From a bacterium (GTDB lineage Bacteria; Patescibacteriota; Minisyncoccia; Phycocordibacterales; UBA2100), in assembly GCA_030674455.1 (NCBI GenBank), contig JAUSGQ010000029.1:6625-70624 (forward strand): DNA of 64,000 bases, written 5' to 3'. The position numbers and the translations under genes were made by a program. Position 1 is the first letter of the stretch. Each line of letters begins with the position of its first letter. Under the pieces are notes generated by a model. That model saw only the letters and a program-made list of their open reading frames with translations, ran no database searches and was not told where the DNA came from. Positions 3,001-56,676 of the stretch are shown piece by piece.

Positions 3001-6000
3001 CAACGTCGGCATCGGAACATCTTCTCCATACGCCATGCTCTCGGTGGCAGGCCAAGTTGTCGGCACTTACTTCACCGCCACATCCACAACACTGGCTAAC
3101 ACCTTCCCATACGCAAGCACGACCGCGCTCACCGCAAGCGGAAACGCATACCTCGGCACAACGACCATCACAAACCTCGCCGTCTCCAACACGAGTACAT
3201 CAACATTCGCTGGCGGGCTCCAATCTACATATCTAAACATCACAGGCACAGTGTCGACATCAACATTCGCCAGAGGTATTGACCTCTCCGGCGGATGCTT
3301 CTCGGTGAATGGCACATGCGTCGGCGGTTCTTCCGTCACGGGTACGACCGGACAGCTTACATACTTCAGCGATACGAATACTGCCGTAGGCACATCCACG
3401 CTCTTTGTCTCCACCGCGAGCAACGTCGGAATCGGAACAACGACGCCCAACTGGACGCTGACATCTTCCAACTCAACAGGCCCTCAGCTTTCCCTCGGCG
3501 ATGGCTCCAACAACTCATGGACATTCAGAAACTCCGGCGCGACACTGTATCTCGCGACTTCCACATACTCCGCCACTTCAACAACAGCGGCTCTTGCCTT
3601 CAACAACTCCACGGGTGCCGCGACATTCGGCTCTCCCGCCACATCAACATTCACAGGAGGAATAACATCTACATACCTGAACATCACCGGCACAAACGCC
3701 ACTTCAACATTCGCTAGAGGAATTGACATCGCGGGCGGATGCTTCGCGATAAATGGAACGTGCGTGGGCGGCTCGTCGCTCACAGGCACCACCGGACAGC
3801 TCGCATACTTTAGCGGTACAGACACCGGAGTTGGAACTTCCACACTATTCATCTCCACAGCAAGCAATGTCGGCATCGGGACGACGACGCCGGGAGCAAC
3901 TCTCACAATCCAAGCCGCTCTCAACGCGACACCATTCATAATTGCATCCTCCACCGGCGCGACGATGCTCTCGGTAGACACGACCGGCGCGCTTTCGGCC
4001 AAATTAAAACAACTCACTGCCGATTACACCGTTGATTCCTCCAGTGCAAGCATCAGTGTCGGCGACGTCGTTTCGTATATCAATGGGAATGCGAAGAAAG
4101 CTAATGCCGTTGTCCCAGGCACCACCATCACCGCCGGCACTCCAGTCGCCGCCAATGCCGTCGCCTCCTCACCCGTCTCCGCCACCACCCTTGACGCCAC
4201 CCACTTCGTGGTGGCATATTCGGGTACTTCAGGCTATGCCAATGCTGTCGTAGGCACCGTCTCCGGCACAACCATCACATACGGCACTCCCGTCGCCCTA
4301 AACGCCGTCGCCTCCACCTACACCTCCGCCACCACCCTTGATTCTACCCACTTTGTGGTGGCGTATAGAAACGGAAGTACAGGCTACGCCAATGCTGTCG
4401 TATCCACCGTCTCCGGTACCACCATCACCGCTGGCACCCCCGTTGCCCTGAACGCCGTTGGCTCCACCTTACAGAATTCAAACTCATCAGCAGTCGCCGC
4501 TCTTGACTCCACCCACTTCGTGGTAGCGTATCGGAACGATGATACCACTTATGCCAACGCCGTCGTCTCCTCAGTCTCCGGTACCACCATCACCGCCGGC
4601 ACTCCCGTAGCGTTGAACGCCGTCGCCTCCAGCTACACCGCCACCGCCTCCCTTGACGCCACCCACTTCGTGGTTACGTATAAGGGCGCCTCAGGCTACG
4701 CCAATGCCGTTGTATCCTCAGTCTCCGGTACCACCATCACCGCCGGCACTCCCGCGGTTCTTAATGCCATCAATTCTTTCTACTCAAATACCGCCTCCCT
4801 TGACGCCACCCACTTCGTGGTAGCGTATTATAACGCGACAACAGGCTTCGGTGACGCCGTCATCTCCTCAGTCTCCGGTACCACCATCACCGCCGGCACT
4901 CCCGTGGCTCTTAATGCTGTTACCTCTACCTCCTACTCCGTCAACGCTCTGGACTCCACCCACTTTGTGGTTGCGTATAATGGCACATCAAACTACGCTA
5001 CCGCCGTCGTTTCTATCGTCTCCGGCACCACTTTCACTCCCGGCACTCCCGTGGCTCTTAATGCCGTTGCATCTGGGTTACATTCCGTTGCGGTCATAGA
5101 CGCCACCCACTTTGTGACGGCGTATCAGAACAACGTTACAACCTACGCTGACGCCGTCGTCTCTAGTCTCAATACCGTTATCGCCGCTGGTACTAACATT
5201 CTCGGCATGGCCACCAACGCTACGACGAGTACTAATAATACGATTACAGTTGCCTCCAACGGCATCGTGACAGGTCTCTCCGGTCTTACCGCTGGAAGCA
5301 CCTACTATTGGAATGGGGCGCTTACCACCACTGCGAGCACCAACTACCCCGTCGGAATCGCGCTCACCACCACCTCAATGCTTCTCAACTCCGGCAATCG
5401 CGGTGCGAGCGCGAGTACCGACCAATTCTTCGGCGATATGATATTCGCCAACAACTTCCGCATCACGGAGAATCAGAGTCTGCCCAACTCGCTCATCTTC
5501 AAGAACCAGCTCAGCCGCGACATCATGTCGCTGGACGAAAACGGCAACATTGCTCTTTCCGGGTTGCTCACGGCCTCCAATATCGGACCGAACATTTTCA
5601 ACCTGCTTGGCACGACTACTATAGATGAGCTCACGGCTTCGACCACCTTGACAAGCTCGGGGCAAGCAAGCACAACACCCACATGGGCAGGGGCGTTCGC
5701 AGACGCGAGTGATACGCTCAAGAGCGCTCTGCAAGAGTTCTCCGACGCGGTAGTTCAAGTCTTCGGCCGGGCAATCTACGCGACAGCGGGCATATTTGAA
5801 AAAATATTTTCAAAAGAGGTGCACACAGACAAACTCTGCGTTTCAGATTCGGAAGGGGAGACATGCGTTACGCGCGCCCAGCTTGATGTGCTTCTTGCTT
5901 CAGCTGCGACTGGAGCCGCTTCCGCCGAAGGCGGAAGTGGCGAAACAGCCAGCTCAACAGTGAGTAGCAGTACTGCCACATCTTCGGATTCTTCCGCGTC

Positions 6001-8981: not shown

Positions 8982-9027
8982 CTATCTGCGCATATCCCAG
9001 AGGCAAGTCAAAACCATCAAGGCTCAA

Positions 9028-9054
9028 AACCATCAAGGCGACGCCTTGATGGTT
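9028..9054. repeat. 27-nt perfect hairpin (aaccatcaaggcg-a-cgccttgatggtt) at the 3' flank of the RAYT gene. A half-copy lies at 9011-9022
   Basis: Seen in sequence; an identical copy lies at 9762-9788. Confidence 0.9.
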
Positions 9055-9740
9055 TCAGTAAAATAAGGGTCATCGGTCGCGACACTTGCGTAATACGCGC
9101 GGGCGTCCTCGAGCATTTTGCGTGGCGCGGTATTGCGGTACACGTCAAACGCGTCGCGGGAAAGTATTGCGACGATGTCTCGTTTCTCACCCGCAAAATC
9201 CGGAAAACTCGAATAGCGATATCCGCGCAGGAATTTTTCCAGCCGTGCCATGTCGCGCACCGCTCCTTTTTTCCATCCCGGTGCGAAGCGCTCGGCAGGA
9301 TTGCAATGGATGTAGTTGACGACGTGCTGGAAGTAGAGGTCTTCCCCCACATGCCGCGAGCGAAACGGTTTCATAAAAAGATTTCCTGTTCGATCGTTTT
9401 TCTTGTTGAAGTACATCGTGTACGCGGTACCGAGTTTCTGCATAAAGCGTGTGATCCCGCCCTCCATGATCTCCTTGAGAAGCAGGTGAAAATGATTCGG
9501 CATGAGGCAGTATGCCCCGATAGATACAAGAGCATTGGAGCGTTCAAGGGAAATTATCTCGCTCGTCGTTCGCTCCGAGAGATTGCTCCGATGCAGCGTG
9601 TCCGTCGAGTTCGCCAGATAGAGAATCTGTAAGAAGCGTTCCGAATTATCCTCGCTTTCGAAGACTATCCGCTTCTCGATGCCTCTGTTGTAACAGTGGA
9701 ACCATTCGTCGATTTGGAATGGGACTGGACGTTGCGCCAT
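9033..9740 (-). mobile_element. IS200/IS605-type Y1 (HUH) transposase, REP-associated tyrosine transposase (RAYT)-like
   Basis: 'LMPNHFHLLL' HUH motif and 'YIHCNPAE'. Likely start MAQRPVPF (ATG at 9740). The ORF-track start at 9794 lies inside the flanking hairpin. Confidence 0.8.
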
Positions 9741-9761
9741 ACGGCAAGTGTACCACAAGAA

Positions 9762-9788
9762 AACCATCAAGGCGACGCCTTGATGGTT
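9762..9788. repeat. Second copy of the 27-nt perfect hairpin, immediately 5' of the RAYT gene
   Basis: Identical to 9028-9054. Confidence 0.9.
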
Positions 9789-11209: not shown

Positions 11210-11228
11210 TTTCGGAATTATAGACTGC

Positions 11229-11352
11229 TAATTTGCAAATCCCAATTTGCAATTTGCAAACAAAATACCAAACCACAATTTCTCAGGCTCGGTTCGTTTG
11301 AGTTTTGTATTTTAGGATTTCTTTGCAAATTGATTTTTGATGCTTGCAAATT
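11229..11352. repeat. About 125-bp intergenic element rich in 'ttgcaaat' repeats; copy 1 of 2
   Basis: Shares 'aatttgcaaa.cccaatttgcaatttgcaaa' and 'gatttctttgcaaattgatttttg..gcttgcaaattc' with 37993-38113. Confidence 0.8.
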
Positions 11353-11364
11353 CGGATTCCCGCA

Positions 11365-14420: not shown

Positions 14421-15095
14421 TCACTCTATCACAAATATGCGTTCTGTTCCGTAGTATTCTTGCCAGTTAGCGTTATAGAAAGCAAACATGCGCTCCAAGC
14501 GGCTTTGGGGTAATTCCTTTACGCCAAGCTCTTGCATGAGGGTGCGAACTTGCGCTTCGGCGGACGAGAGCTCGACCTTATCGCTTACGACGCGCTCGAA
14601 TTCGGCAAGCCAGCCGTAGCCCGCATTTTTGTCGAGCGTTACGTTGACGCCTTTGCAAATATACTCCTCGCGCTCGCGCGACCACTTCGCCTGATACTTG
14701 AATCCGGCGGAAAGGACGAGTGCGTCCAGTTCAGCGAGAGTCATGGAAACCTTCTCCTCGAATTCCATGCGTGCGATTCCATTGGCGCTCGTGTCGTCTC
14801 CAACCGAGGCTTTGACGACGAGAAGTACTGTTCCATCCTTATCACGCGTACGCACCGAGAAATTCTTGGCACGACCGACAAGATCGGAAAGTCGCCCCGA
14901 AATTTCCGCAGGAAATTTCGGGGCAGTAATCTCAACAAGTTTCTCCAAATCGCCGCTTTCAAAATAATGATTCAACTGTTTGTTCCGTGATGTAAGAGTG
15001 CATCCAGAATTCGCTTTTTTTAGCGCTTCGCGGACTTGGTCTGCGCGTTCCTTATCGCCAAGCAAAGATTTTACTTCCACCTCGTATGAATGCAT
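14421..15095 (-). CDS. CYTH-domain protein (class IV adenylyl cyclase / triphosphate-tunnel metalloenzyme-like)
   Basis: N-terminal 'YEVEVKSLL' resembles the CYTH ExExK motif. Assignment is moderate. Confidence 0.45.
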   Translation of the reverse strand: MHSYEVEVKSLLGDKERADQVREALKKANSGCTLTSRNKQLNHYFESGDLEKLVEITAPKFPAEISGRLSDLVGRAKNFSVRTRDKDGTVLLVVKASVGDDTSANGIARMEFEEKVSMTLAELDALVLSAGFKYQAKWSREREEYICKGVNVTLDKNAGYGWLAEFERVVSDKVELSSAEAQVRTLMQELGVKELPQSRLERMFAFYNANWQEYYGTERIFVIE

Positions 15096-15858: not shown

Positions 15859-16431
15859 ATGAAAAAGCCCCTAATCACTGAGGTGGTAGCAATCGGGAGA
15901 AATCGGGAGCTTGGCAAGAACGATAAACTTCTGTGGCATATTCCCGATGACCTAAAACGCTTCAAGCGTCTGACTTTGGGGCATCCGATAATCATGGGAA
16001 GAAAGACGTTCGAATCAATAGTCGGGTACATCGGAGAACCGCTTCCGGGGCGCACGAACATAATAGTTACTCGCCAGACAAGCAAGTTCATCGCGGACAA
16101 TCCTTATTTGCTTATTCGCGCGAATAAGCAAATAGTTGGGAATACCAATTTATCTGCGCAGGATGGAGTGATTGTCGTTAGTTCCATCGAGGAGGGGATT
16201 GAAAAGGCGCGAGAGGAAAATCCGAAAGAAATTCACATCGGAGGCGGCGCGGAGATTTACGAACAAGCGCTTCCATATATAGACAAACTGCAGCTGACAA
16301 TAATCGACGACGAAAAACCAGCGGACACGTTTTTCCCGCCCTACGAACACATATTTACAAAAAAGGTTTTTGAGGAGTCGCGCGAGTGGAACGGCATCAA
16401 ATACAAGTGGATAGATTTAGAGCGCGATTGA
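15859..16431 (+). CDS. folA: Dihydrofolate reductase, with an extra ~20 aa relative to canonical DHFR that coincides with a 30-nt palindromic element
   Basis: 'LLWHIPDDLKRFKRLTLGHPIIMGRKTFESI...LPGRTNIIVTR' and 'IHIGGGAEIYEQALP' DHFR motifs. The insert 'NPYLLIRANKQIVGN' is encoded by palindrome 16105-16134. Confidence 0.85.
   Translation: MKKPLITEVVAIGRNRELGKNDKLLWHIPDDLKRFKRLTLGHPIIMGRKTFESIVGYIGEPLPGRTNIIVTRQTSKFIADNPYLLIRANKQIVGNTNLSAQDGVIVVSSIEEGIEKAREENPKEIHIGGGAEIYEQALPYIDKLQLTIIDDEKPADTFFPPYEHIFTKKVFEESREWNGIKYKWIDLERD
16105..16134. repeat. 30-nt perfect palindrome tatttgcttattcgcgcgaataagcaaata, in-frame within folA
   Basis: Core ttgcttattcgcgcgaataagcaa is shared with palindromes at 27159-27194 and 27504-27539. 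Confidence 0.9.
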
Positions 16432-17695: not shown

Positions 17696-20600
17696 ATGAC
17701 GCATCGGATTTCCGTCACTTCAAACATTCCCGACTCACGCGCACAAAATTACCTCCGCACATTGCGCGAACTTTTTCCTAAAAGCGGCCTCTCGGCCGCC
17801 TCTCTGTTGCAGGTTTACACAATAGACGCCGATTTGTCGGCGAGCGAACTGCGCGAGGCGGCGGAGCGGCTCACGAATCCCATCACGGAGCGTTTTTCAA
17901 CAACACAGATTCCCGCGCCGGATTCATATTCATGCGCGATCGAGATCGGATTCCTCGCCGGCGTTACCGACAACGTGGGCCACACGGCGCGGCAGACGAT
18001 AGAAGATTGCATAGGCAGAGAATTTGCTGAAGGCGAAAGCGTCTATTCTTCCTACATTCTTTTTCTCACGGGCGAGATAACATCGGAGATCGCGCAGAGC
18101 ATGGCTCGCGAGCTCTACAACCCGCTTATTGAGCGTGCGACCGTTTTCTCGGGCGTCCAAAAAGATTTTCCCATTGTAGTACCCAAAGTGAAATTGGCCA
18201 GCTCCGAAGCGTCCGTGGCTGAAGTTAATCTTAATGTGGATGCGGCGGAACTCGAAAAGCTGGGCAAGGAGGGAATCAAGGATTCCTCGGGCGTGCGCCG
18301 CGGGCCACTTTCACTCTCATTGAAACAATTGCAGGTTATACAAAATCATTTCTCAAAGCGTAAACGGAATCCCACTGACATTGAATTGGAATCACTGGCG
18401 CAGACGTGGTCGGAACATTGCAAGCACACGATTTTTGCAGACCCGCTGGATGAAATCAAAGAGGGAATTTATCGAAAATATATAAAGGGAGCGACGGGAA
18501 AAATAAGAAAAGAGAAGGCGAAAAAGCCCGTTAGAGGCACGGCCTCTAACGGGCCAGGGGATTTTTGCGTTTCGGTGTTTACGGATAATTCCGGAGCGAT
18601 CGCATTTGACGATAGATATTTGGTAACTCACAAAGTAGAGACGCACAATTCGCCCTCGGCGCTTGACCCCTTCGGCGGTTCCGTGACGGCTATTGTGGGA
18701 GTAAACCGAGACACGCTTGGGTTCGGGCTCGGCGCAAAACCGATAGTGAATGTATACGGATTTTGCGTTGCTGACCCGAACGATACGACTGCATTGTATC
18801 GGTATTCGGAAAGAAAACAGCCGCTCTTGCCCGCGCGAAGAATTCTTGAAGGAGTGGTTCGAGGGATTAATGCCGGAGGAAATCAGAGCGGAATCCCCAC
18901 GGCTCTCGGATTCCTCGCAGTTGACCCGAGTTATCGCGGCAAGCCCTTAATTTACGGGGGGACCATCGGCCTCATACCCCGTAAAAGCCCTTCGGGCTCA
19001 CGGGGCAGGCCCCGGAAACTATATGAAAAACGTGCTCAAGCAGGAGATTACATCGTTATGGTCGGTGGGCGAGTGGGAGCGGACGGCATTCACGGCGCGA
19101 CGTTTTCCTCCGAATCGCTTTCCAGCGGTTCACCGGCTACAGCAGTACAAATTGGCGACCCCATCACGCAAAAGAAACTCTCGGACGCGATTATCCGCGA
19201 AGCGAGAGACGCCGGATTGTATTCAAGCATTACCGACAACGGAGCGGGAGGGCTTTCCGGTGCTGTTGGTGAAATGGCAAAAGAATCGGGCGGGCCTTCG
19301 CCTCGCCGTAGCGGGCTTCGGCCTCGCGAAGGCGGGTGCATTGTCGACTTGTCGACCGTGCCGCTCAAGTATCCGGGACTCGCGCCATGGCAGATTTGGC
19401 TTTCGGAATCGCAGGAGCGCATGACGCTTGCTGTCCCGAAAAAGAACTGGACAGCTCTCAAAAAGATTTTCGACAGGCACAATGTTGAGGCGACGCGAAT
19501 AGGCACGTTCACGAATTCCGGAAGGTGTATTGTGAAATTTGGAAAGGAAAAAGTCATGGACATGGAAATGTCGTTCTTGCACGACGGCCGTCCCATCGAA
19601 GTTCAGAAAAGCAAAAAGCCCGCGCGCGTGAACAGCGAGCCGCCTGCGGCGGCTCGTTCCAGCGACCTTAGCGAATCGCTTCTCAAGATGCTCGCTCGTC
19701 CGAATATCGGTTCAATATCGTTTATTTCAGAACAGTACGACCACGAAGTGCAGGGCTCATCCGTCACAAAACCACTCGAAGGAAAGGGAAGAGTGAACGC
19801 GGATTCTGCCGTTTTGCAGCCATTGCCCGATACGAACCGCGGCATCGTCTTGGCGCACGGCTATTGCCCGTGGTATTCCGGCATCGACACATACGCGATG
19901 GCGGCGGCATCCATTGATACCGCCATACGCAACGCCGTGTGTGCGGGTGCTTCGCGCGATTACCTGGCAATTCTCGACAACTTCTGCTGGTCCAGCTCGA
20001 ACACGCCGGAGAGATTGTATGAACTCAAAGAATCGGCGCGCGCGTGTTTTGACATAGCGACGGCGTACGGGACGCCGTTCATCTCCGGCAAAGATTCGAT
20101 GTTTAACGATTTTCGCGGATTCACCGAAGACGGCAAAAAAATCCAAATATCCGCACAGCCAACGCTTCTCATCTCCGCTCTCGGCGTCATTCCGGATGTT
20201 ACAAAAGCGATGACGATTGATTTCAAACAAGCAGGCGACTTAATTTATCTTGTTGGAGAAACGAACGATGAACTCGGCGCATCTGAATATTTTGCGATGT
20301 TGGGAGAGGAAAAAGGGAATTTAGTTCCAATTGTTGATGCAAAGAAAAATGCCAGAATCTATGACGCACTCTCTCGCGCCATAAGCGGAAAAGGACATAC
20401 TCACATACTTGAGAATGTAAGGATGTTTGGCTGCGTGGCGTCGGCGATTAGCCTGGGGCGGGGAGGGCTTGGCGTAGCGCTCGCAAAGAGTTGTGTTGCC
20501 GGACAGCTTGGAGCGAGCGTCAATTTGAAGAATATACCGGGCGACGCAAAACAAGACGATTCCATTTTGTTTTCTGAAAGCCAGGGCAGGGTTTTAGTTT

Positions 20601-24675: not shown

Positions 24676-25647
24676 ATGACTGAAGTTCTCAAAGAAACCA
24701 ACTTTTCCAACCTCGGTGAAAAGAAAACGGGCAAAGTCCGCGACATTTACATACAACCCGAGCGATTGGTGCTCGTGACGACCGACAGACATTCTTCGTT
24801 CGACCGCATCATCGCTCACATCCCGCACAAGGGCCAAGTGCTGAATCAAATCAGCGCTTTTTGGTTTGAGCAGACAAAAGATATTATTCCCAACCACGTA
24901 CTCGCGATTCCGGACCCCAACGTGACCATCGGTAAGAAATGCACGATGGTTCCCGTTGAAGCTGTTGTGCGCGGATATGTCACAGGCGTTACCGGTACAT
25001 CCATTTGGACACGGTACTCAAAAGGAAAACGGGATTTTGGCGATATTGTCTTGCCGGACGGATTGAAGAAAAATCAGAAATTGCCTCACCCGATATTTGA
25101 CCCGACGACAAAAGAAGATACGCACGACAGGACGCTTTCGCTTAAAGAAATGGTCTCAGAAGGATTGGTTACAGCGGAAATCTTGGAGCAGATACAAAAA
25201 ACGGCTCTCGCATTGTTTGCGCGAGGAGAAGAAATCGCAAAATCACGCGGACTTATTCTTGTGGATACGAAGTACGAATTTGGTTTAGACAAGTCTGACT
25301 TGTCGGAATCCGACAAGTCAGACTTGTCTAAAGGGCGATTGGTGTTGATTGACGAAATTCATACGCCCGACTCCTCGCGCTATTGGCAAGCGGATTCCTA
25401 CGAAGAGCGATTTTCAAAAGGCGAAGAGCCCCAGTATTTTGATAAGGAATTTTTACGCCTGTGGTTCAGGGAGCATTGCGACCCCTACAAGGACGCGACA
25501 CTTCCGGAGGCGCCTAAAGAGCTCGTGCAGGAGCTTTCGCGACGCTACATCCAAATGTTCGAGCAGATTACGGGAAAGAAATTCGTACCAGGCGAAGAGC
25601 CGATAATTCCGCGCATGGAGAAGAATTTATCAGCGTATAGCGTCTAG
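24676..25647 (+). CDS. purC: SAICAR synthetase. Contains a short in-frame tandem duplication (KSDLSESDKSDLSK, nt about 25290-25330)
   Basis: 'GKVRDIY...LVLVTTDRHSSFDR', 'VVRGYVTG' SAICAR synthase motifs. Confidence 0.85.
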   Translation: MTEVLKETNFSNLGEKKTGKVRDIYIQPERLVLVTTDRHSSFDRIIAHIPHKGQVLNQISAFWFEQTKDIIPNHVLAIPDPNVTIGKKCTMVPVEAVVRGYVTGVTGTSIWTRYSKGKRDFGDIVLPDGLKKNQKLPHPIFDPTTKEDTHDRTLSLKEMVSEGLVTAEILEQIQKTALALFARGEEIAKSRGLILVDTKYEFGLDKSDLSESDKSDLSKGRLVLIDEIHTPDSSRYWQADSYEERFSKGEEPQYFDKEFLRLWFREHCDPYKDATLPEAPKELVQELSRRYIQMFEQITGKKFVPGEEPIIPRMEKNLSAYSV

Positions 25648-27158: not shown

Positions 27159-27194
27159 ATCTACTTGCTTATTCGCGCGAATAAGCAAGTAGAT
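27159..27194. promoter_or_regulatory. 36-nt perfect palindrome atctacttgcttattcgcgcgaataagcaagtagat, 15 nt upstream of the ArsR-type regulator gene. Candidate operator or mobile hairpin
   Basis: Perfect dyad symmetry. The same core recurs at 27504-27539 and 16105-16134 with compensatory outer-arm changes. Confidence 0.6.
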
Positions 27195-27208
27195 GATACA
27201 ATGAGCAG

Positions 27209-27475
27209 ATGCATGAAATAGAATTGGAACGGCAGCTCAAAGTGCTAGGCAACAGACGGAGGCTTGCTATCCTGAATCTTTTGCGCAAGCGAAAGGATGT
27301 AAACGTAAGCGATATAGCAGACGCCATCAAGCTTTCACTTACATCAACATCGAGGCACTTGATTATGCTTGAGCGAATGGGGTTCGTCGAAAAGGAACAA
27401 AAAAGTCTTAACGTGTACTATCGAATCACTTCTACTCCAGCAGATACGTTGCGTGATGTGCTTAAACTGCTCTAG
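27209..27475 (+). CDS. ArsR/SmtB-family HTH transcriptional regulator (88 aa)
   Basis: 'GNRRRLAILNLLRKRKDVNVSDIADAIKLSLTSTSRHLIMLERMGFV' winged-HTH ArsR pattern. Confidence 0.75.
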   Translation: MHEIELERQLKVLGNRRRLAILNLLRKRKDVNVSDIADAIKLSLTSTSRHLIMLERMGFVEKEQKSLNVYYRITSTPADTLRDVLKLL

Positions 27476-27503
27476 CGATGCCCCACGTGTGAATTTCGAT
27501 GTT

Positions 27504-27539
27504 CAATACTTGCTTATTCGCGCGAATAAGCAAGTATTG
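27504..27539. repeat. 36-nt perfect palindrome caatacttgcttattcgcgcgaataagcaagtattg, 3' of the ArsR-type regulator gene
   Basis: Seen in sequence. Confidence 0.9.
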
Positions 27540-27600
27540 AGAATATGAAGAAGAAGGAATGATGAATAAAAGTGATGAAGAAAACAGACTTTCAGTTAAT

Positions 27601-35949: not shown

Positions 35950-36115
35950 TTGCAACGTGCGTTTCGGTTGCCGATGTTCTGGCCTACGCGAATGGAAACA
36001 GTAAAGGCACAGACGGTCAAACAAAATGAGTGCATAACTATTGAGATAATCAAAGTTTTCTTCAGAATTGAGAAGGCGTCCAGTTTGTGTTATGTATATG
36101 GCAGCGGACGAGACG
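35950..36115. repeat. About 165-bp direct repeat, copy 1 (about 85-90 % identical to 37025-37190), flanking the IS200-like element
   Basis: Seen in sequence. Confidence 0.8.
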
Positions 36116-36180
36116 TTATTTTTTTTGGTGAGTCCATTAAAGAGGAGAGCAGCGTGCATATTTTATTCGCGGGGAAAAGG

Positions 36181-36265: not shown

Positions 36266-36940
36266 ATGGGAAGAGCGCTTCGTACTGATGTCGGAGGTTA
36301 TGTGTACCATGTATTAAATCGAGCGAACGCTCGCTCGACGATATTCAGGACAAAGGCAGATTACGAGTTGTTTGAAAAGGTGCTTGAAGAGGCCAAGGAA
36401 TTAATCGGCATGAGAATTCTTGCGTACTGCATCATGCCAAATCACTGGCATCTCGTGCTGTATCCCAAGAGTGATGGCGATTTGTCGAAGTTTGTTAATT
36501 GGCTGACGTTAACGCACACCCAACGCTGGCATGCCGCACATAATACGATTGGACACGGCCACTTGTATCAAGGGCGATACAAATCATTTCTGTGCGAGGA
36601 TGATGTTCACTTTATTCATCTCGTGCGATATGTGGAGCGTAATGCTTTACGAGCCAATCTTGCGCCTCGGGCAGAGGATTGGCGATGGGGAAGTGCGTGG
36701 CGACGGATTAACGGTACCGCGAAGCAGAAAGAATTGCTCGGTTCATGGCCGGTGCATATGCCGCAACGATATGTTGAACTCTTGAATCATCCGCAATCGG
36801 AGGAAGAAGTTAATGCGATGCGGCGGGCAGTTACCCGTGGCAATCCGTATGGTTCAGACGAATGGATAGAAAGGATGATAAAGAAGTTCCGTCTCGAAAC
36901 AACGGTTCGTTCGAGGGGCAGACCAAGAAAAGGTTCCTGA
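36266..36940 (+). mobile_element. IS200/IS605-type Y1 (HUH) transposase
   Basis: 'YHVLNRAN...RILAYCIMPNHWHLVL...HLYQGRYKSF...YVERNALRANL'. Start taken at MGRALRTD; the ORF-track start at 36068 reads through the flanking repeats. Confidence 0.8.
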
Positions 36941-37024: not shown

Positions 37025-37190
37025 GTCGCAGAATACGGTTGCCAATGTTTCTGGCCTGAATAAATGGAAACAGTAAAGACACAGACGGTCAAACAAAATG
37101 AGTGCATAACTATTGAGCTATGGTCAAAGTTCTTTGCCGAATTGAGAACGCGTCCAGTTTGTGTTATGTATATGGCAGCGGACGAGGTCT
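37025..37190. repeat. About 165-bp direct repeat, copy 2
   Basis: Matches 35950-36115. Confidence 0.8.
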
Positions 37191-37235
37191 GATTTCGTCC
37201 TCGAACATCCCGTCACTTTATGGAAGGACAGCACC

Positions 37236-37906: not shown

Positions 37907-37992
37907 AGATTCTTAATATTAAACGTTATTAATAAGCTTGGCCATATTGTATACCCCGCTTGCGTGATATGCCACAAGGCGTTATAGGCCAC

Positions 37993-38113
37993 AAATTTGC
38001 AAAACCCAATTTGCAATTTGCAAAAGAAATTTCAATTTTCAAAGCGGTTTTGCCGTTTGATTCTTGTAGTTTTTGATTTCTTTGCAAATTGATTTTTGGA
38101 GCTTGCAAATTCT
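37993..38113. repeat. 'ttgcaaat'-rich intergenic element; copy 2 of 2
   Basis: Matches 11229-11352. Confidence 0.8.
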
Positions 38114-41916: not shown

Positions 41917-42132
41917 CTAGATGCCAGTCTTCAGCGACAGCGCTGGGGCGCCAGCCAGAATTTGCTCGAGCTCTTCCATGGAGCCTTGGAAATCAGTCAA
42001 TTTGGCGAACATGACAAACTGTTCGCCGTCTTGCCTTCCCCACGATTCTAGGAGAGAGCACCCATGTCTTTCGAGCGTTCCCAACGCCTCGAACGCCGAA
42101 GCGGCGTTCGAGGTTTTTACCTGGATATCCAT
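41917..42132 (-). CDS. Small hypothetical protein (about 71 aa from MDIQVKTS...)
   Basis: ORF only. Confidence 0.3.
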   Translation of the reverse strand: MDIQVKTSNAASAFEALGTLERHGCSLLESWGRQDGEQFVMFAKLTDFQGSMEELEQILAGAPALSLKTGI

Positions 42133-46512: not shown

Positions 46513-47316
46513 ATGGGCAGGCAATCCCGTTCGCAAATAGTAGTAACCGTCGGACCTGCAAGCACCGATGTCTCTACAATTCTGCGGATGATAGCCGGAG
46601 GAATGGATGTCGCGCGGATTAATTTTTCTCACGGCACGCATGAATCCAACGGAGGACACATACAGAATATTCGCGAGGCGGCGAAAAAGGCGGGTAAGAC
46701 AATTCCGATAATCCAAGACTTGGCCGGTCCGCGGATGAAGACGGACGTTGGACACGCATTTAATTCGAAAGAAACTGAAATAGTCACGCAGAAGGACATT
46801 TCGGACCTTGATTTTGGCATCAAGGAAGGCGTCGAATACATAGCGCAATCATACGTTGGCACGGCAGAGGATATTCGCACCTTGCGAAGAGCGATACAAG
46901 AGCGTGGAGCAAAGATTCACATCGTCGCGAAAATCGAGCGGAGGGAAGCTGTGGAGAATTTTGATGCAATTTTAGAGGAGGCTGATGCGATTATGGTCGC
47001 TCGAGGTGATTTGGGATTAAATGTGCCGATAGAGGAGATTCCATTTCTGGAAAAAGAAATGGTGGGGAAAGCAAAGAAAGCAGGGAAGCCCGTCATCGTT
47101 GCGACGGAAATGATGTACTCGATGGTGGAGAGCAATCGGCCGACGCGAGCCGAGGTAACGGACATTGCCTACGCGATTCTCATCGGTTCCGACGCCGTTA
47201 TGCTCTCCGATGAAACGGCGCGGGGTAAACATCCGGTTGAGGCAGTGGAAATAATGGAGAAAATTGTGTCGCGCTCTGAAGTTACCGCTAAAACCGGAAG
47301 CATCAATTCACTGTGA
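46513..47316 (+). CDS. pyk: Pyruvate kinase, minimal form (267 aa; A-domain barrel only, no B or C-terminal domains)
   Basis: 'IVVTVGPAS...MDVARINFSHG', 'IVAKIERREAVEN', 'MVARGDLG' PK motifs. Stop codon is 2 nt before the RAYT hairpin. Confidence 0.75.
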   Translation: MGRQSRSQIVVTVGPASTDVSTILRMIAGGMDVARINFSHGTHESNGGHIQNIREAAKKAGKTIPIIQDLAGPRMKTDVGHAFNSKETEIVTQKDISDLDFGIKEGVEYIAQSYVGTAEDIRTLRRAIQERGAKIHIVAKIERREAVENFDAILEEADAIMVARGDLGLNVPIEEIPFLEKEMVGKAKKAGKPVIVATEMMYSMVESNRPTRAEVTDIAYAILIGSDAVMLSDETARGKHPVEAVEIMEKIVSRSEVTAKTGSINSL

Positions 47317-47317
47317 G

Positions 47318-47336
47318 ATTGAGATGACATCTCAAT
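47318..47336. repeat. 19-nt perfect hairpin attgagatg-a-catctcaat, 5' flank of the RAYT gene
   Basis: Identical copy at 48055-48073. Confidence 0.9.
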
Positions 47337-47367
47337 GGTTTTGCGAGTCTATGATAGACTTTTAGCC

Positions 47368-48042
47368 ATGACTCGTCGTCATGAATTTTCTGTCGATGAA
47401 TGGTATCACTGCTTCAATCGCGGAGTTGATAAGCGGATTGTGTTTGAGAACGAACAGGATGCCTCTCGTTTTCTCATCATCCTATACCTTGCAAACGGAA
47501 CCGAGCCAATGCAAATCTTTAACACGGACAAGCCAACGTTTGCCAAAGCCCTTGAGGAATATCGCGGCAAACCTATCGTTTCGCTTGGCGCATACTGCTT
47601 GATGCCAAATCACTTTCATTTACTTCTCAAGGAGATAATAGAAGGTGGTATAAGCGAATTTATGAGAAAACTCGGGATAGCATACACGATGTATTTTAAT
47701 GCAAAAAATCAGCGTGTTGGGAATCTATTTATTAGGCCGTTCCGGTCGCGTCATGTACGCGATGACAGTTATTTCCAAAGAGTTCTGCAATATATACATT
47801 GCAATCCTGCTGAATTGTATGAACCAGGTTGGAAATTGGGTAAAGTTAAAGACGTCCGGTTATTGGAGAAAAAACTTATCGAATATCCATACTCCAGCCT
47901 TCAAAGTTATGCAAAAGCGGGGGCATCAAACCCGATTCTTTCAGGTGAAGGACTTGAGATTGCGGATCAGTTACCGCTATCACAAATGCTCGACGAAGCA
48001 CAGGCCTATTATTCTGATGTTGCAGGGAGTCTTTTGCGGTAA
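47368..48042 (+). mobile_element. IS200/IS605-type Y1 transposase (RAYT-like); paralog of 9033..9740
   Basis: 'FSVDEWYHCFNRG...LMPNHFHLLLKEI...YIHCNPAE'. Confidence 0.8.
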
Positions 48043-48054
48043 ATTGCAAAATCC

Positions 48055-48073
48055 ATTGAGATGACATCTCAAT
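48055..48073. repeat. Second copy of the 19-nt hairpin, 3' flank of the RAYT gene
   Basis: Seen in sequence. Confidence 0.9.
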
Positions 48074-48194
48074 ATTCGTCTCGTACAAACACTTGCGTTG
48101 TTTGAGGACATGTGGTATATCTACGGCCGGAGATGGCATAGATTTAGCCATTTTGAGCCGTTATTAAGCCATATTTTAATCAATTTATAAACAT

Positions 48195-52774: not shown

Positions 52775-52875
52775 TCCGAATCTACGAATTATCCGAATGC
52801 TACGAATGGCTACAAATGTGGGAATTTATTATTTGTAGTTATTTGTAGATTGGAATCCATTTGTAGATTGGTACA
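52775..52875. repeat. Intergenic repeat element (cgaatgctacgaatggctacaaatgt ... attatttgtagattggaat), copy 1, upstream of argJ
   Basis: Shared with 54980-55110. Confidence 0.75.
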
Positions 52876-54979: not shown

Positions 54980-55110
54980 TACCAATCTACAAATGTATTC
55001 CAATCTACGAATGCCAATCTACAAATGATACGAATGCTACGAATGGCTACAAATGTTAGTATTTCACATTTGTAATTATTTGTAGATTGGAATATATTCG
55101 CAGATTGGAA
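54980..55110. repeat. Intergenic repeat element, copy 2 (three ccaatctacaaatg units, then an inverted atttgtagattgg), upstream of argD
   Basis: Seen in sequence. Confidence 0.75.
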
Positions 55111-55122
55111 CATGTTTAAATT

Positions 55123-56298: not shown

Positions 56299-56350
56299 AT
56301 AGGGAAATAGATGAAATTGAGGATGATTGAGATACTTCCCGTTTGAGTTG

Positions 56351-56386
56351 TTCTATTCCAGTGTTTTGCAAAACACTGGAATAGAA
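56351..56386. promoter_or_regulatory. 36-nt perfect palindrome ttctattccagtgttttgcaaaacactggaatagaa, 6 nt upstream of the ArsR-type regulator gene
   Basis: Perfect dyad. Further copies at 56646-56675 and 57479-57530. Confidence 0.6.
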
Positions 56387-56391
56387 CTAGA

Positions 56392-56676
56392 ATGTTAAGA
56401 ATGGCAAATCGCAGTTACCGCACCATAGAACGCATCGTGAAGGGTTACGCCAACCACCGGCGGTTAGAGATATTAGATTTATTGCGCAAGGAACCGGAGC
56501 TTTCTGTGGAGGACATCTCTGAAAAACTGAAGATCGGGTATCAGAATGCTTCCGACCATATTCGCAAGCTTTCAATCGCGGGCCTTGTGGCCAAGCGGAA
56601 CGAGGGTCCAAGCGTTCGACACAAGCTTACGCCTCGGGCAGAGTCTATTCTAGTGTTTTGCAAAACACTGGAATAA
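56392..56676 (+). CDS. ArsR-family HTH transcriptional regulator (94 aa). Its last ~10 codons are encoded by a copy of the palindrome
   Basis: 'HRRLEILDLLRKEPELSVEDISEKLKIGYQNASDHIRKLSIAGLV'. Confidence 0.7.
   Translation: MLRMANRSYRTIERIVKGYANHRRLEILDLLRKEPELSVEDISEKLKIGYQNASDHIRKLSIAGLVAKRNEGPSVRHKLTPRAESILVFCKTLE

Follow-up and report, generated by a model that had tools for sequence, protein, structure and literature searches.

Two genes for Y1-type transposases, found in a 64,000-nucleotide stretch of a groundwater Patescibacteria (Candidate Phyla Radiation, CPR) genome (contig JAUSGQ010000029.1, positions 6,625 to 70,624; hereafter the window), are each enclosed by two copies of a perfect hairpin, and the two genes have different hairpins. 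We consider it probable that each locus is a self-contained unit of ~0.76 kb, bracketed by its hairpins and similar to the genes of repetitive extragenic palindrome (REP)-associated tyrosine transposases (RAYTs) and of the related terminal-inverted-repeat-associated enzymes (TIRYTs). Such a unit would be rarely mobile and long-lived, and would diverge together with its hairpin. In our judgement, it is neither a classical IS200 insertion sequence (IS) nor a high-copy REP system.

The two units comprise the features below, given by position in the window and strand, with upstream and downstream taken in the orientation of the gene.

Unit A, 9762–9788, minus strand: upstream hairpin with a 13-bp stem, at whose outer foot the unit ends.
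Unit A, 9747–9755, minus strand: putative extended −10 promoter TGGTACACT, 6 nt upstream of the Y1-A ATG, leaderless-type, with no Shine-Dalgarno sequence.
Unit A, 9033–9740, minus strand: Y1-A gene, 235 aa, an HUH/Tyr single-strand DNA transposase of the RAYT type, with H83, H85 and Y143.
Unit A, 9027–9055, minus strand: downstream hairpin with a 14-bp perfect stem, AAACCATCAAGGCG-N-CGCCTTGATGGTTT.
Unit A, 9008–9023, minus strand: extra 3′-arm half-site that repeats, in tandem over 16 nt, the outer arm and tail of the downstream hairpin.
Unit B, 47318–47336, plus strand: upstream hairpin, ATTGAGATG-A-CATCTCAAT, with an inner extension GG at 47337–47338.
Unit B, 47352–47360, plus strand: putative extended −10 promoter TGATAGACT, 7 nt upstream of the Y1-B ATG.
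Unit B, 47368–48042, plus strand: Y1-B gene, 224 aa, a paralogue of Y1-A.
Unit B, 48051–48073, plus strand: downstream hairpin with a 5′ inner extension ATCC, matched exactly by the solo hairpin that L157–L159 have at the orthologous site.

The 27-nt palindrome AACCATCAAGGCGACGCCTTGATGGTT had exact copies at 9028–9054 and 9762–9788; with up to three mismatches allowed, the window contained no further match, and shuffled sequence gave 0 matches. The preliminary description of this DNA had placed gene A between two such identical hairpins, with its stop codon inside one copy and its start close to the other, and this anatomy was borne out. The stop codon (9033–9035, minus strand) lies within the downstream hairpin, which encodes the C-terminal tail TIKASP-stop of Y1-A, and the start codon (9738–9740) is separated from the upstream copy by 21 nt. 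The additional half-site mentioned there is also real: AACCATCAAGGC at 9012–9023 is part of a 16-nt tandem duplication, tcaaaaccatcaaggc (9008–9023 and 9024–9039), and a similar extra 3′ arm follows the downstream hairpin of the homologous locus L108. Hairpin A has the form AAAAC...GTTTT, and its two copies fold as single-stranded DNA at −13.9 and −13.6 kcal/mol, with z ≈ −7 (−7.0 for the downstream copy).

As likewise described before, a paralogous unit with a different hairpin stands just after the pyruvate kinase (PK) gene. Over 214 residues, the two proteins share 55% identity (E = 6e-89). The 19-nt palindrome ATTGAGATGACATCTCAAT has exact copies in the window only at 47318–47336 and 48055–48073, and the upstream copy begins one base past the PK stop codon (47314–47316). 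As single-stranded DNA, hairpin B folds at −5.2 kcal/mol (z ≈ −3).

The same bracket was found across the protein family, which comprises 2,927 protein clusters (90% identity) matched at E ≤ 1e-5. The family is essentially Patescibacterial (Kaiserbacteria, Paceibacterota, Nomurabacteria and others), and a relative was encoded in 565 of the first 600 pattern-matched stretches from a species-representative genome collection. The CPR genomes that carry it are tiny and streamlined, and they frequently contain several paralogues that have diverged from one another. We compared the 150 nt upstream of each gene with the 150 nt downstream, and drew control pairs from the same loci. The flanks shared a segment of at least 15 nt in 60 of the 77 complete Patescibacteria homologue loci, compared with 1 of 287 control pairs. 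A stem of at least 6 bp was present in 49 of these 60 segments, versus 1.7% of shuffled segments. The hairpin sequence was particular to each unit, and many hairpins had an apical AGG...CCT core in common. Hairpin similarity rose with protein similarity (Mantel r = 0.21, with 0 of 2000 permutations as high). The earlier suggestion that transposase and hairpin co-evolve thus gains support from the private hairpin of each unit and from this correlation, as well as from the invariant hairpin core described below.

Among 70 homologue loci, 26 had a TATAAT-like box, often with TG, whose end lay 6 nt ahead of the ATG, and no Shine-Dalgarno sequence was present. Each unit therefore looks self-sufficient, with a hairpin, a putative promoter, a leaderless open reading frame (ORF) and a second hairpin. 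Several homologue units had two to three hairpin copies at one end, and some had a copy inside the Y1 ORF, which in three of four cases lay near residues 51–61. Multi-hairpin ends and in-gene copies have been reported for RAYT genes with their REPs (REPtrons), the in-gene copies for subclass 2.4.

Both proteins matched the Pfam family Y1_Tnp (PF01797) above its gathering score of 23, with 34.2 bits for A and 30.3 bits for B. In an alignment of 49 homologues, residues N82, H83 and H85 (NHFH) as well as Y143, H145 and N147 (YIHCNP) were invariant. The preliminary description had staked its reading on the catalytic HUH/Tyr residues and on hairpins occurring elsewhere, and both were found. Searching PDB sequences with the family profile gave marginal matches only (ISDra2 TnpA, E = 0.5), so a fold search was needed. 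The AlphaFold2 model of Y1-A (pLDDT 90) had its closest fold in the E. coli RAYT–REP hairpin complex 4er8 (E = 1e-6). The TnpA proteins of IS608 and ISDra2 followed in the same search at E ~ 1e-3; the structures matched included 2xm3 and 2vjv. The sole NCBIfam match of either protein was a partial one to REP_Tyr_transpos (NF047646), with 36.6 bits for A and 42.0 bits for B against a cut-off of 80 bits; neither matched transpos_IS200. These proteins already carry the annotation transposase or RayT in databases.

As given in Table 1 of Quentin et al. 2018 (PMC6006769), the class 2 TnpAY1 (RAYT) signature is Y---NP with an HuH motif preceded by N or D, whereas IS200 transposases have Y---Q. The motifs YIHCNP and NHFH carry the class 2 signature. 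Subclass 2.1 is described in the same source by NH[YF]H / FQ / Y[IV]HLNP and a median length of 238 aa, and according to that description it holds most TIRYT genes of Di Nocera et al. 2013 (PMC3733652). Judged by motif and length against these published descriptions, our proteins would come nearest to subclass 2.1. The predicted protein has a helical C-terminal region and is ~70 aa longer than E. coli TnpAREP/RAYT. A Pfam scan of A and B at E ≤ 0.01 detected no family besides Y1_Tnp, and no C-terminal helix-turn-helix (HTH)-like domain (DnaA_C, HTH_23 or HTH_28). Taken together, the protein evidence favours the RAYT side.

Whole units were observed in different genomic surroundings. Genes 78–87% identical to Y1-A occurred in six neighbourhoods, namely the window, L081 and L134 (one shared site), L087, L102, L107 and L117. 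The flanking genes were Trypsin_2 and Aminotran_5 in L081 and L134, rplI and a PDZ protease in L087, and genes for a LamG-type protein and a HAD-like hydrolase in the window, where exact look-ups with gene A and with the HAD-like neighbour gave no match. All A-type units carried the 21-nt core CATCAAGGCGNCGCCTTGATG at both ends, and their similarity to the window ended at the outer feet of the hairpins. A GTTTT-tailed hairpin closed six of the seven A-type units examined, the core of L117 being without that tail. The B-type genes, 73–78% identical to Y1-B, also stood in other neighbourhoods and kept the apical TGAGATG-N-CATCTCA; their basal pairs varied among units and co-varied between the two ends of one unit.

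Divergence among the A-type genes is old: it was saturated at synonymous sites (pS 0.58–0.76), with dN/dS of 0.06–0.07. In the same pairs, the hairpin core was identical at 21 of 21 positions, and hence the hairpin is constrained at the nucleotide level. At the site shared by L081 and L134, the Y1 proteins were 86–87% identical, about as conserved as the neighbouring ClpB, which indicates that units can be inherited vertically for long periods. Plasmid and phage collections held distant relatives only, with at most 40% identity over partial matches. In L081 (10706–10726), the convergent Aminotran_5 gene runs into the downstream hairpin of the unit and ends in KTIKATP-stop, the tail of several Y1 proteins; the hairpin provides a stop codon (CCTTGA) on both strands. 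Near rplI in L097, a candidate solo hairpin is followed by GGTATAC, as at the upstream end of the L081 unit, but at a position that is not strictly homologous.

The history of the unit B site could be followed in relatives, where the gene order 2-Hacid_dh, MOFRL, enolase, PK and PG_binding protein is conserved. In L160 (PK 73% identical), which has no Y1 gene here, a hairpin-free spacer of 24 nt separates PK from the conserved TGTGGTATA promoter of the following gene. L161 and L162 (PK 74%) also have neither; an unrelated rve-family (DDE) IS is present there (3308–4508, orthologous to 47317–48194 of the window), and the intergenic spot between PK and PG_binding protein appears to be an insertion hot spot. 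In the closest relatives, L157–L159 (PK 79%), we found a solo ATCCATTGAGATGACATCTCAAT, identical to the right hairpin of the window including the inner ATCC extension. The window itself has the full unit B, with no target duplication. Given outgroups with neither hairpin nor gene, a solo hairpin in L157–L159 and the full unit in the window, the unit, or at least the hairpin, was gained at this site. A cognate hairpin on its own can remain unaltered with no gene beside it. The ~15 nt before the solo hairpin resemble the 3′ end of Y1-B (ccgctatttcgcaacacATCC versus gcggtaaattgcaaaATCC), and the retention of this 3′ flank in L157 would favour loss of the gene there, whether through deletion or through excision that took the left hairpin along, over its acquisition by the window beside a hairpin already in place.

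Each unit thus consists, in order, of the cognate hairpin, a short spacer with a putative extended −10 promoter, a leaderless Y1 (HUH/Tyr) gene of the RAYT/TIRYT class, and the second copy of the hairpin. By analogy with the solved RAYT–REP and IS608 complexes, we propose that the protein most likely binds its own hairpin on single-stranded DNA, for example on the lagging-strand template. It might then cut at or near the hairpin feet by means of Tyr143, with a metal ion held by His83 and His85. The unit may be excised as single-stranded DNA and re-inserted without target duplication, and copies of the hairpin may be left behind or seeded. Movement would be rare, copies would persist under strong purifying selection, and paralogues would diverge along with their hairpins. 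Since such an enzyme would act on its own hairpin, both hairpins and the protein would be expected to diverge together and yet stay matched. The half-site, the ends with several hairpins and the central-base A/T flips are consistent with palindromes being processed repeatedly, or with slippage there, but do not fix the cleavage sites.

Several observations weigh against this proposal. We saw no near-identical copies at different sites and no sign of recent transposition. In the partial genomes available, second Y1 copies within loci were only 27–42% identical to A, and A and B themselves share 55%; this is nothing like a recent IS burst. No clean excision or empty-site pair was found. L115 was considered as an empty site for the L081 unit and rejected: it has no unit and no hairpin, but the region is otherwise rearranged by indels. 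The solo hairpin of L157, with its remnant of the Y1-B 3′ end, fits deletion as well as excision. Moreover, the hairpin pairs of the 60 bracketed units were direct in 28 cases, inverted in 27 and symmetric in five, a mix that neither the IS608 model nor the REPIN model alone predicts; for hairpins A and B, the orientation rests on the single central base. The preliminary description had proposed looking for a conserved tetranucleotide adjacent to each hairpin, and none was recognisable. The feet were AAAC/GTTT for hairpin A, and ATCC or none for hairpin B; they showed neither the GT[AG]G tetranucleotide nor an evident motif for guiding or cleavage.

Among the rival explanations, a classical domesticated REP–RAYT system, or REPtron, seems unlikely to us. 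Immobile Y1 genes would here spread and maintain genome-wide REP/REPIN hairpins, and the flanking copies would be neighbouring REPs. Much of the evidence above is what such a system would show, as the fold and motifs are RAYT-like, each of several divergent paralogues comes with a hairpin of its own, a feature reported for RAYTs, one unit has been kept at an orthologous site under purifying selection, and some Y1 genes contain a hairpin copy as in subclass 2.4. With E. coli TnpAREP/RAYT and its REP/BIME elements (4er8), the units have in common the best structural match, the Y---NP motif, cognate hairpin flanks, paralogues with separate hairpin families, and long-term persistence. Solo copies exist as well. 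Besides hairpin B in L157, there were nine extra cognate copies in 795 kb of flanking DNA around 57 homologue units (a density estimate from partial genomes). In metagenome contigs, the hairpin A core had exact matches at 71 sites in 63 loci; of these sites, 16 flank Y1 genes, 13 are intergenic and solo, 12 lie near contig ends, and 30 are inside long ORFs. The in-ORF matches, 30 of the 55 non-Y1 sites, are ambiguous: at least the TopA case aligns gap-free to E. coli NKGDALT and is native coding sequence, palindromic by chance. They were accordingly excluded from the REP count. What remains is a copy density far below that of REPs, with no extra copy of hairpin A or B in the window beyond the gene-flanking pairs, and one exact core match in each metagenome contig of 265–588 kb. 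Furthermore, the GT[AG]G foot and the bulged stem of E. coli REPs are absent, the NCBIfam REP_Tyr_transpos scores are well under the cut-off, and it is the whole unit, not the hairpin alone, that is found in different neighbourhoods. The hairpins thus qualify as REPs only weakly. The preliminary reading of REP–RAYT-style or minimal IS200-like units stands as regards the RAYT motifs, the 4er8 fold and the paired hairpins, whereas a high-copy REP population was not found in the data examined. The units look more like low-copy TIRtron-type (TIRYT gene with its terminal repeats) or minimal IS-like elements than like a classical REP/REPIN system.

It is highly improbable that the units are ordinary active members of the IS200/IS605 family (IS200 group), with the hairpins as left-end and right-end structures. 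Such an origin would explain the Pfam Y1_Tnp match, the presence of the IS608 and ISDra2 TnpA proteins among the fold matches, and a ~0.76-kb element that encodes tnpA alone, ends in a hairpin on either side and has not duplicated its target. Nevertheless, IS200, IS608 and ISDra2 are characterised by DH[VI]H and Y---Q instead of NHFH and Y---NP, by a protein of ~150 aa versus 224–235 aa, by high-identity multi-copy occurrence, and by imperfect, subterminal hairpins some way from the cleavage sites, while our palindromes are identical, perfect and exactly terminal. The lack of a transpos_IS200 match and the merely distant relatives on plasmids and phages also speak against it. No conserved target sequence was recognisable. 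We regard as very unlikely another alternative, in which the palindromes are double-stranded operators or bidirectional terminators unrelated to cleavage and the pairing serves expression control. Hairpin A has a terminator-like AAAAC...GTTTT form, the left hairpin B follows the PK stop codon, and palindrome pairs also bracket two ORFs that resemble ArsR regulators by eye (27159–27540 and 56350–56675). The left-end hairpin of IS200 has been reported to act as a terminator. A consensus terminator scan, however, called neither hairpin, and ordinary terminators are not conserved in sequence across neighbourhoods and saturated synonymous divergence. Besides, the hairpin travels with a gene whose product is an HUH nuclease, and the closest structural relative of that product was solved in complex with such a hairpin. 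A termination role can coexist with the self-contained, rarely mobile unit that we prefer. Finally, it is possible, though on the unlikely side, that the units represent autonomous "proto-REPtrons" and so a present-day intermediate stage between ISs of the IS200 type and domesticated RAYT/REPIN systems. A RAYT-class enzyme would then retain the ability to move its gene along with one hairpin or both, leave or seed solo hairpins, also in frame within genes, and occasionally bracket and mobilise a neighbour gene, as the arrangements in L018, L022 and L035 (below) suggest. If true, such activity would be a main origin of the numerous perfect palindromes that streamlined CPR genomes contain.

Transposase domestication has its textbook example in RAYTs, whose origin from IS200-like elements is still argued from a few proteobacterial and cyanobacterial systems. 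The architecture described here matches the known REPtron and TIRtron kinds, now in a large CPR clade and with very clean, perfectly palindromic termini. The TIRYT/TIRtron elements of Di Nocera et al. 2013 (PMC3733652; largely subclass 2.1 and Bertels group 1) likewise have a RAYT-like Y1 gene of ~230–240 aa between matching terminal repeats. Some of those repeats are self-complementary, and they are absent or rare elsewhere in the genome, as are the hairpins here in the DNA examined. The TIRYT motifs NH[YF]H / FQ / Y[IV]HLNP are close to our NHFH / FMQ / YIHCNP. Bertels group 1 is one of the two most IS-like RAYT groups, with low flanking 16-mer counts. The differences are that our units have perfect AGG..CCT-type hairpins and not GGGGWSAS-type inverted repeats, that Pfam detected no C-terminal HTH-like domain, and that the hosts are Patescibacteria, a phylum that the taxon lists consulted for TnpAY1 subclasses in Quentin et al. 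2018 (PMC6006769) do not name. A literature search for RAYT or TnpAREP together with CPR taxa returned no relevant paper. With two identical hairpins at the exact termini, the enzyme–hairpin specificity, the cleavage position, and the spread of gene plus hairpin versus hairpin only become testable with short oligonucleotides. The bracket also offers a simple annotation rule for such units and for the hairpin-encoded C-terminal tails (KTIKA[ST]P-stop) of neighbouring genes.

Some hairpin copies were associated with other genes. In L018 (8691–10090), L022 (9952–11345) and L035 (57–1400), a third copy brackets an adjacent unrelated gene in the order hairpin, gene X, hairpin, Y1, hairpin, with spacings of ~620–710 nt, an arrangement suggestive of either occasional capture in cassette fashion or a locally duplicated hairpin. 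The 21-nt core of hairpin A also lies in frame in 13 reverse-transcriptase genes, straight after the YADD box, where it is read as PSRRRLD, and in several other gene families, where it is read as HQG[DV]ALM (L100, L101, L116, L118, L125, L131, L138, L145, L146, L148, L149, L152, L154 and other metagenome loci). The central base flips between A and T in orthologues (L133/L144 and L111/L139), changing Asp to Val. These in-frame occurrences may partly reflect ascertainment.

The window contains a third, distant Y1 gene:

Gene C, 36266–36940, plus strand: Y1 gene with an NHWH motif, found by tblastn at E = 4e-11; 64 bits against the 80-bit cut-off of NCBIfam REP_Tyr_transpos.

It is flanked not by hairpin A or B but by inverted GGAAAAGGTGTCAGGAA-type repeats, with two copies upstream and several downstream. 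The region lies between two direct repeats of ~145 nt (35977–36121 and 37049–37195) that are 88–90% identical.

Perfect hairpins with a stem of at least 9 bp number 26 in the window compared with ~2 in shuffles, and about half of them are inside long ORFs. Perfect palindromes of 30–38 nt bracket the two small ORFs at 27159–27540 and 56350–56675, and a third copy of the first palindrome is found at 16105–16134, inside ORF 15859–16431. The pairs 27159/27503 and 56350/56644 were considered as further Y1 units and set aside, as the bracketed ORFs resemble ArsR-type HTH regulators by eye; their palindromes are probably operators. A 49-nt perfect palindrome occupies 25284–25332 within ORF 24676–25647, and others are located at 2082–2110, 14894–14924, 18526–18554 and 42087–42113. 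In-frame palindrome insertion is one possibility for those inside ORFs. Intergenic blocks with TTTGCAAAT-type and CTACAAAT-type short repeats recur at 11218–11353 and 37982–38112, and at 52779–52875 and 55016–55112, with 83–88% identity, and may represent shared regulatory regions.

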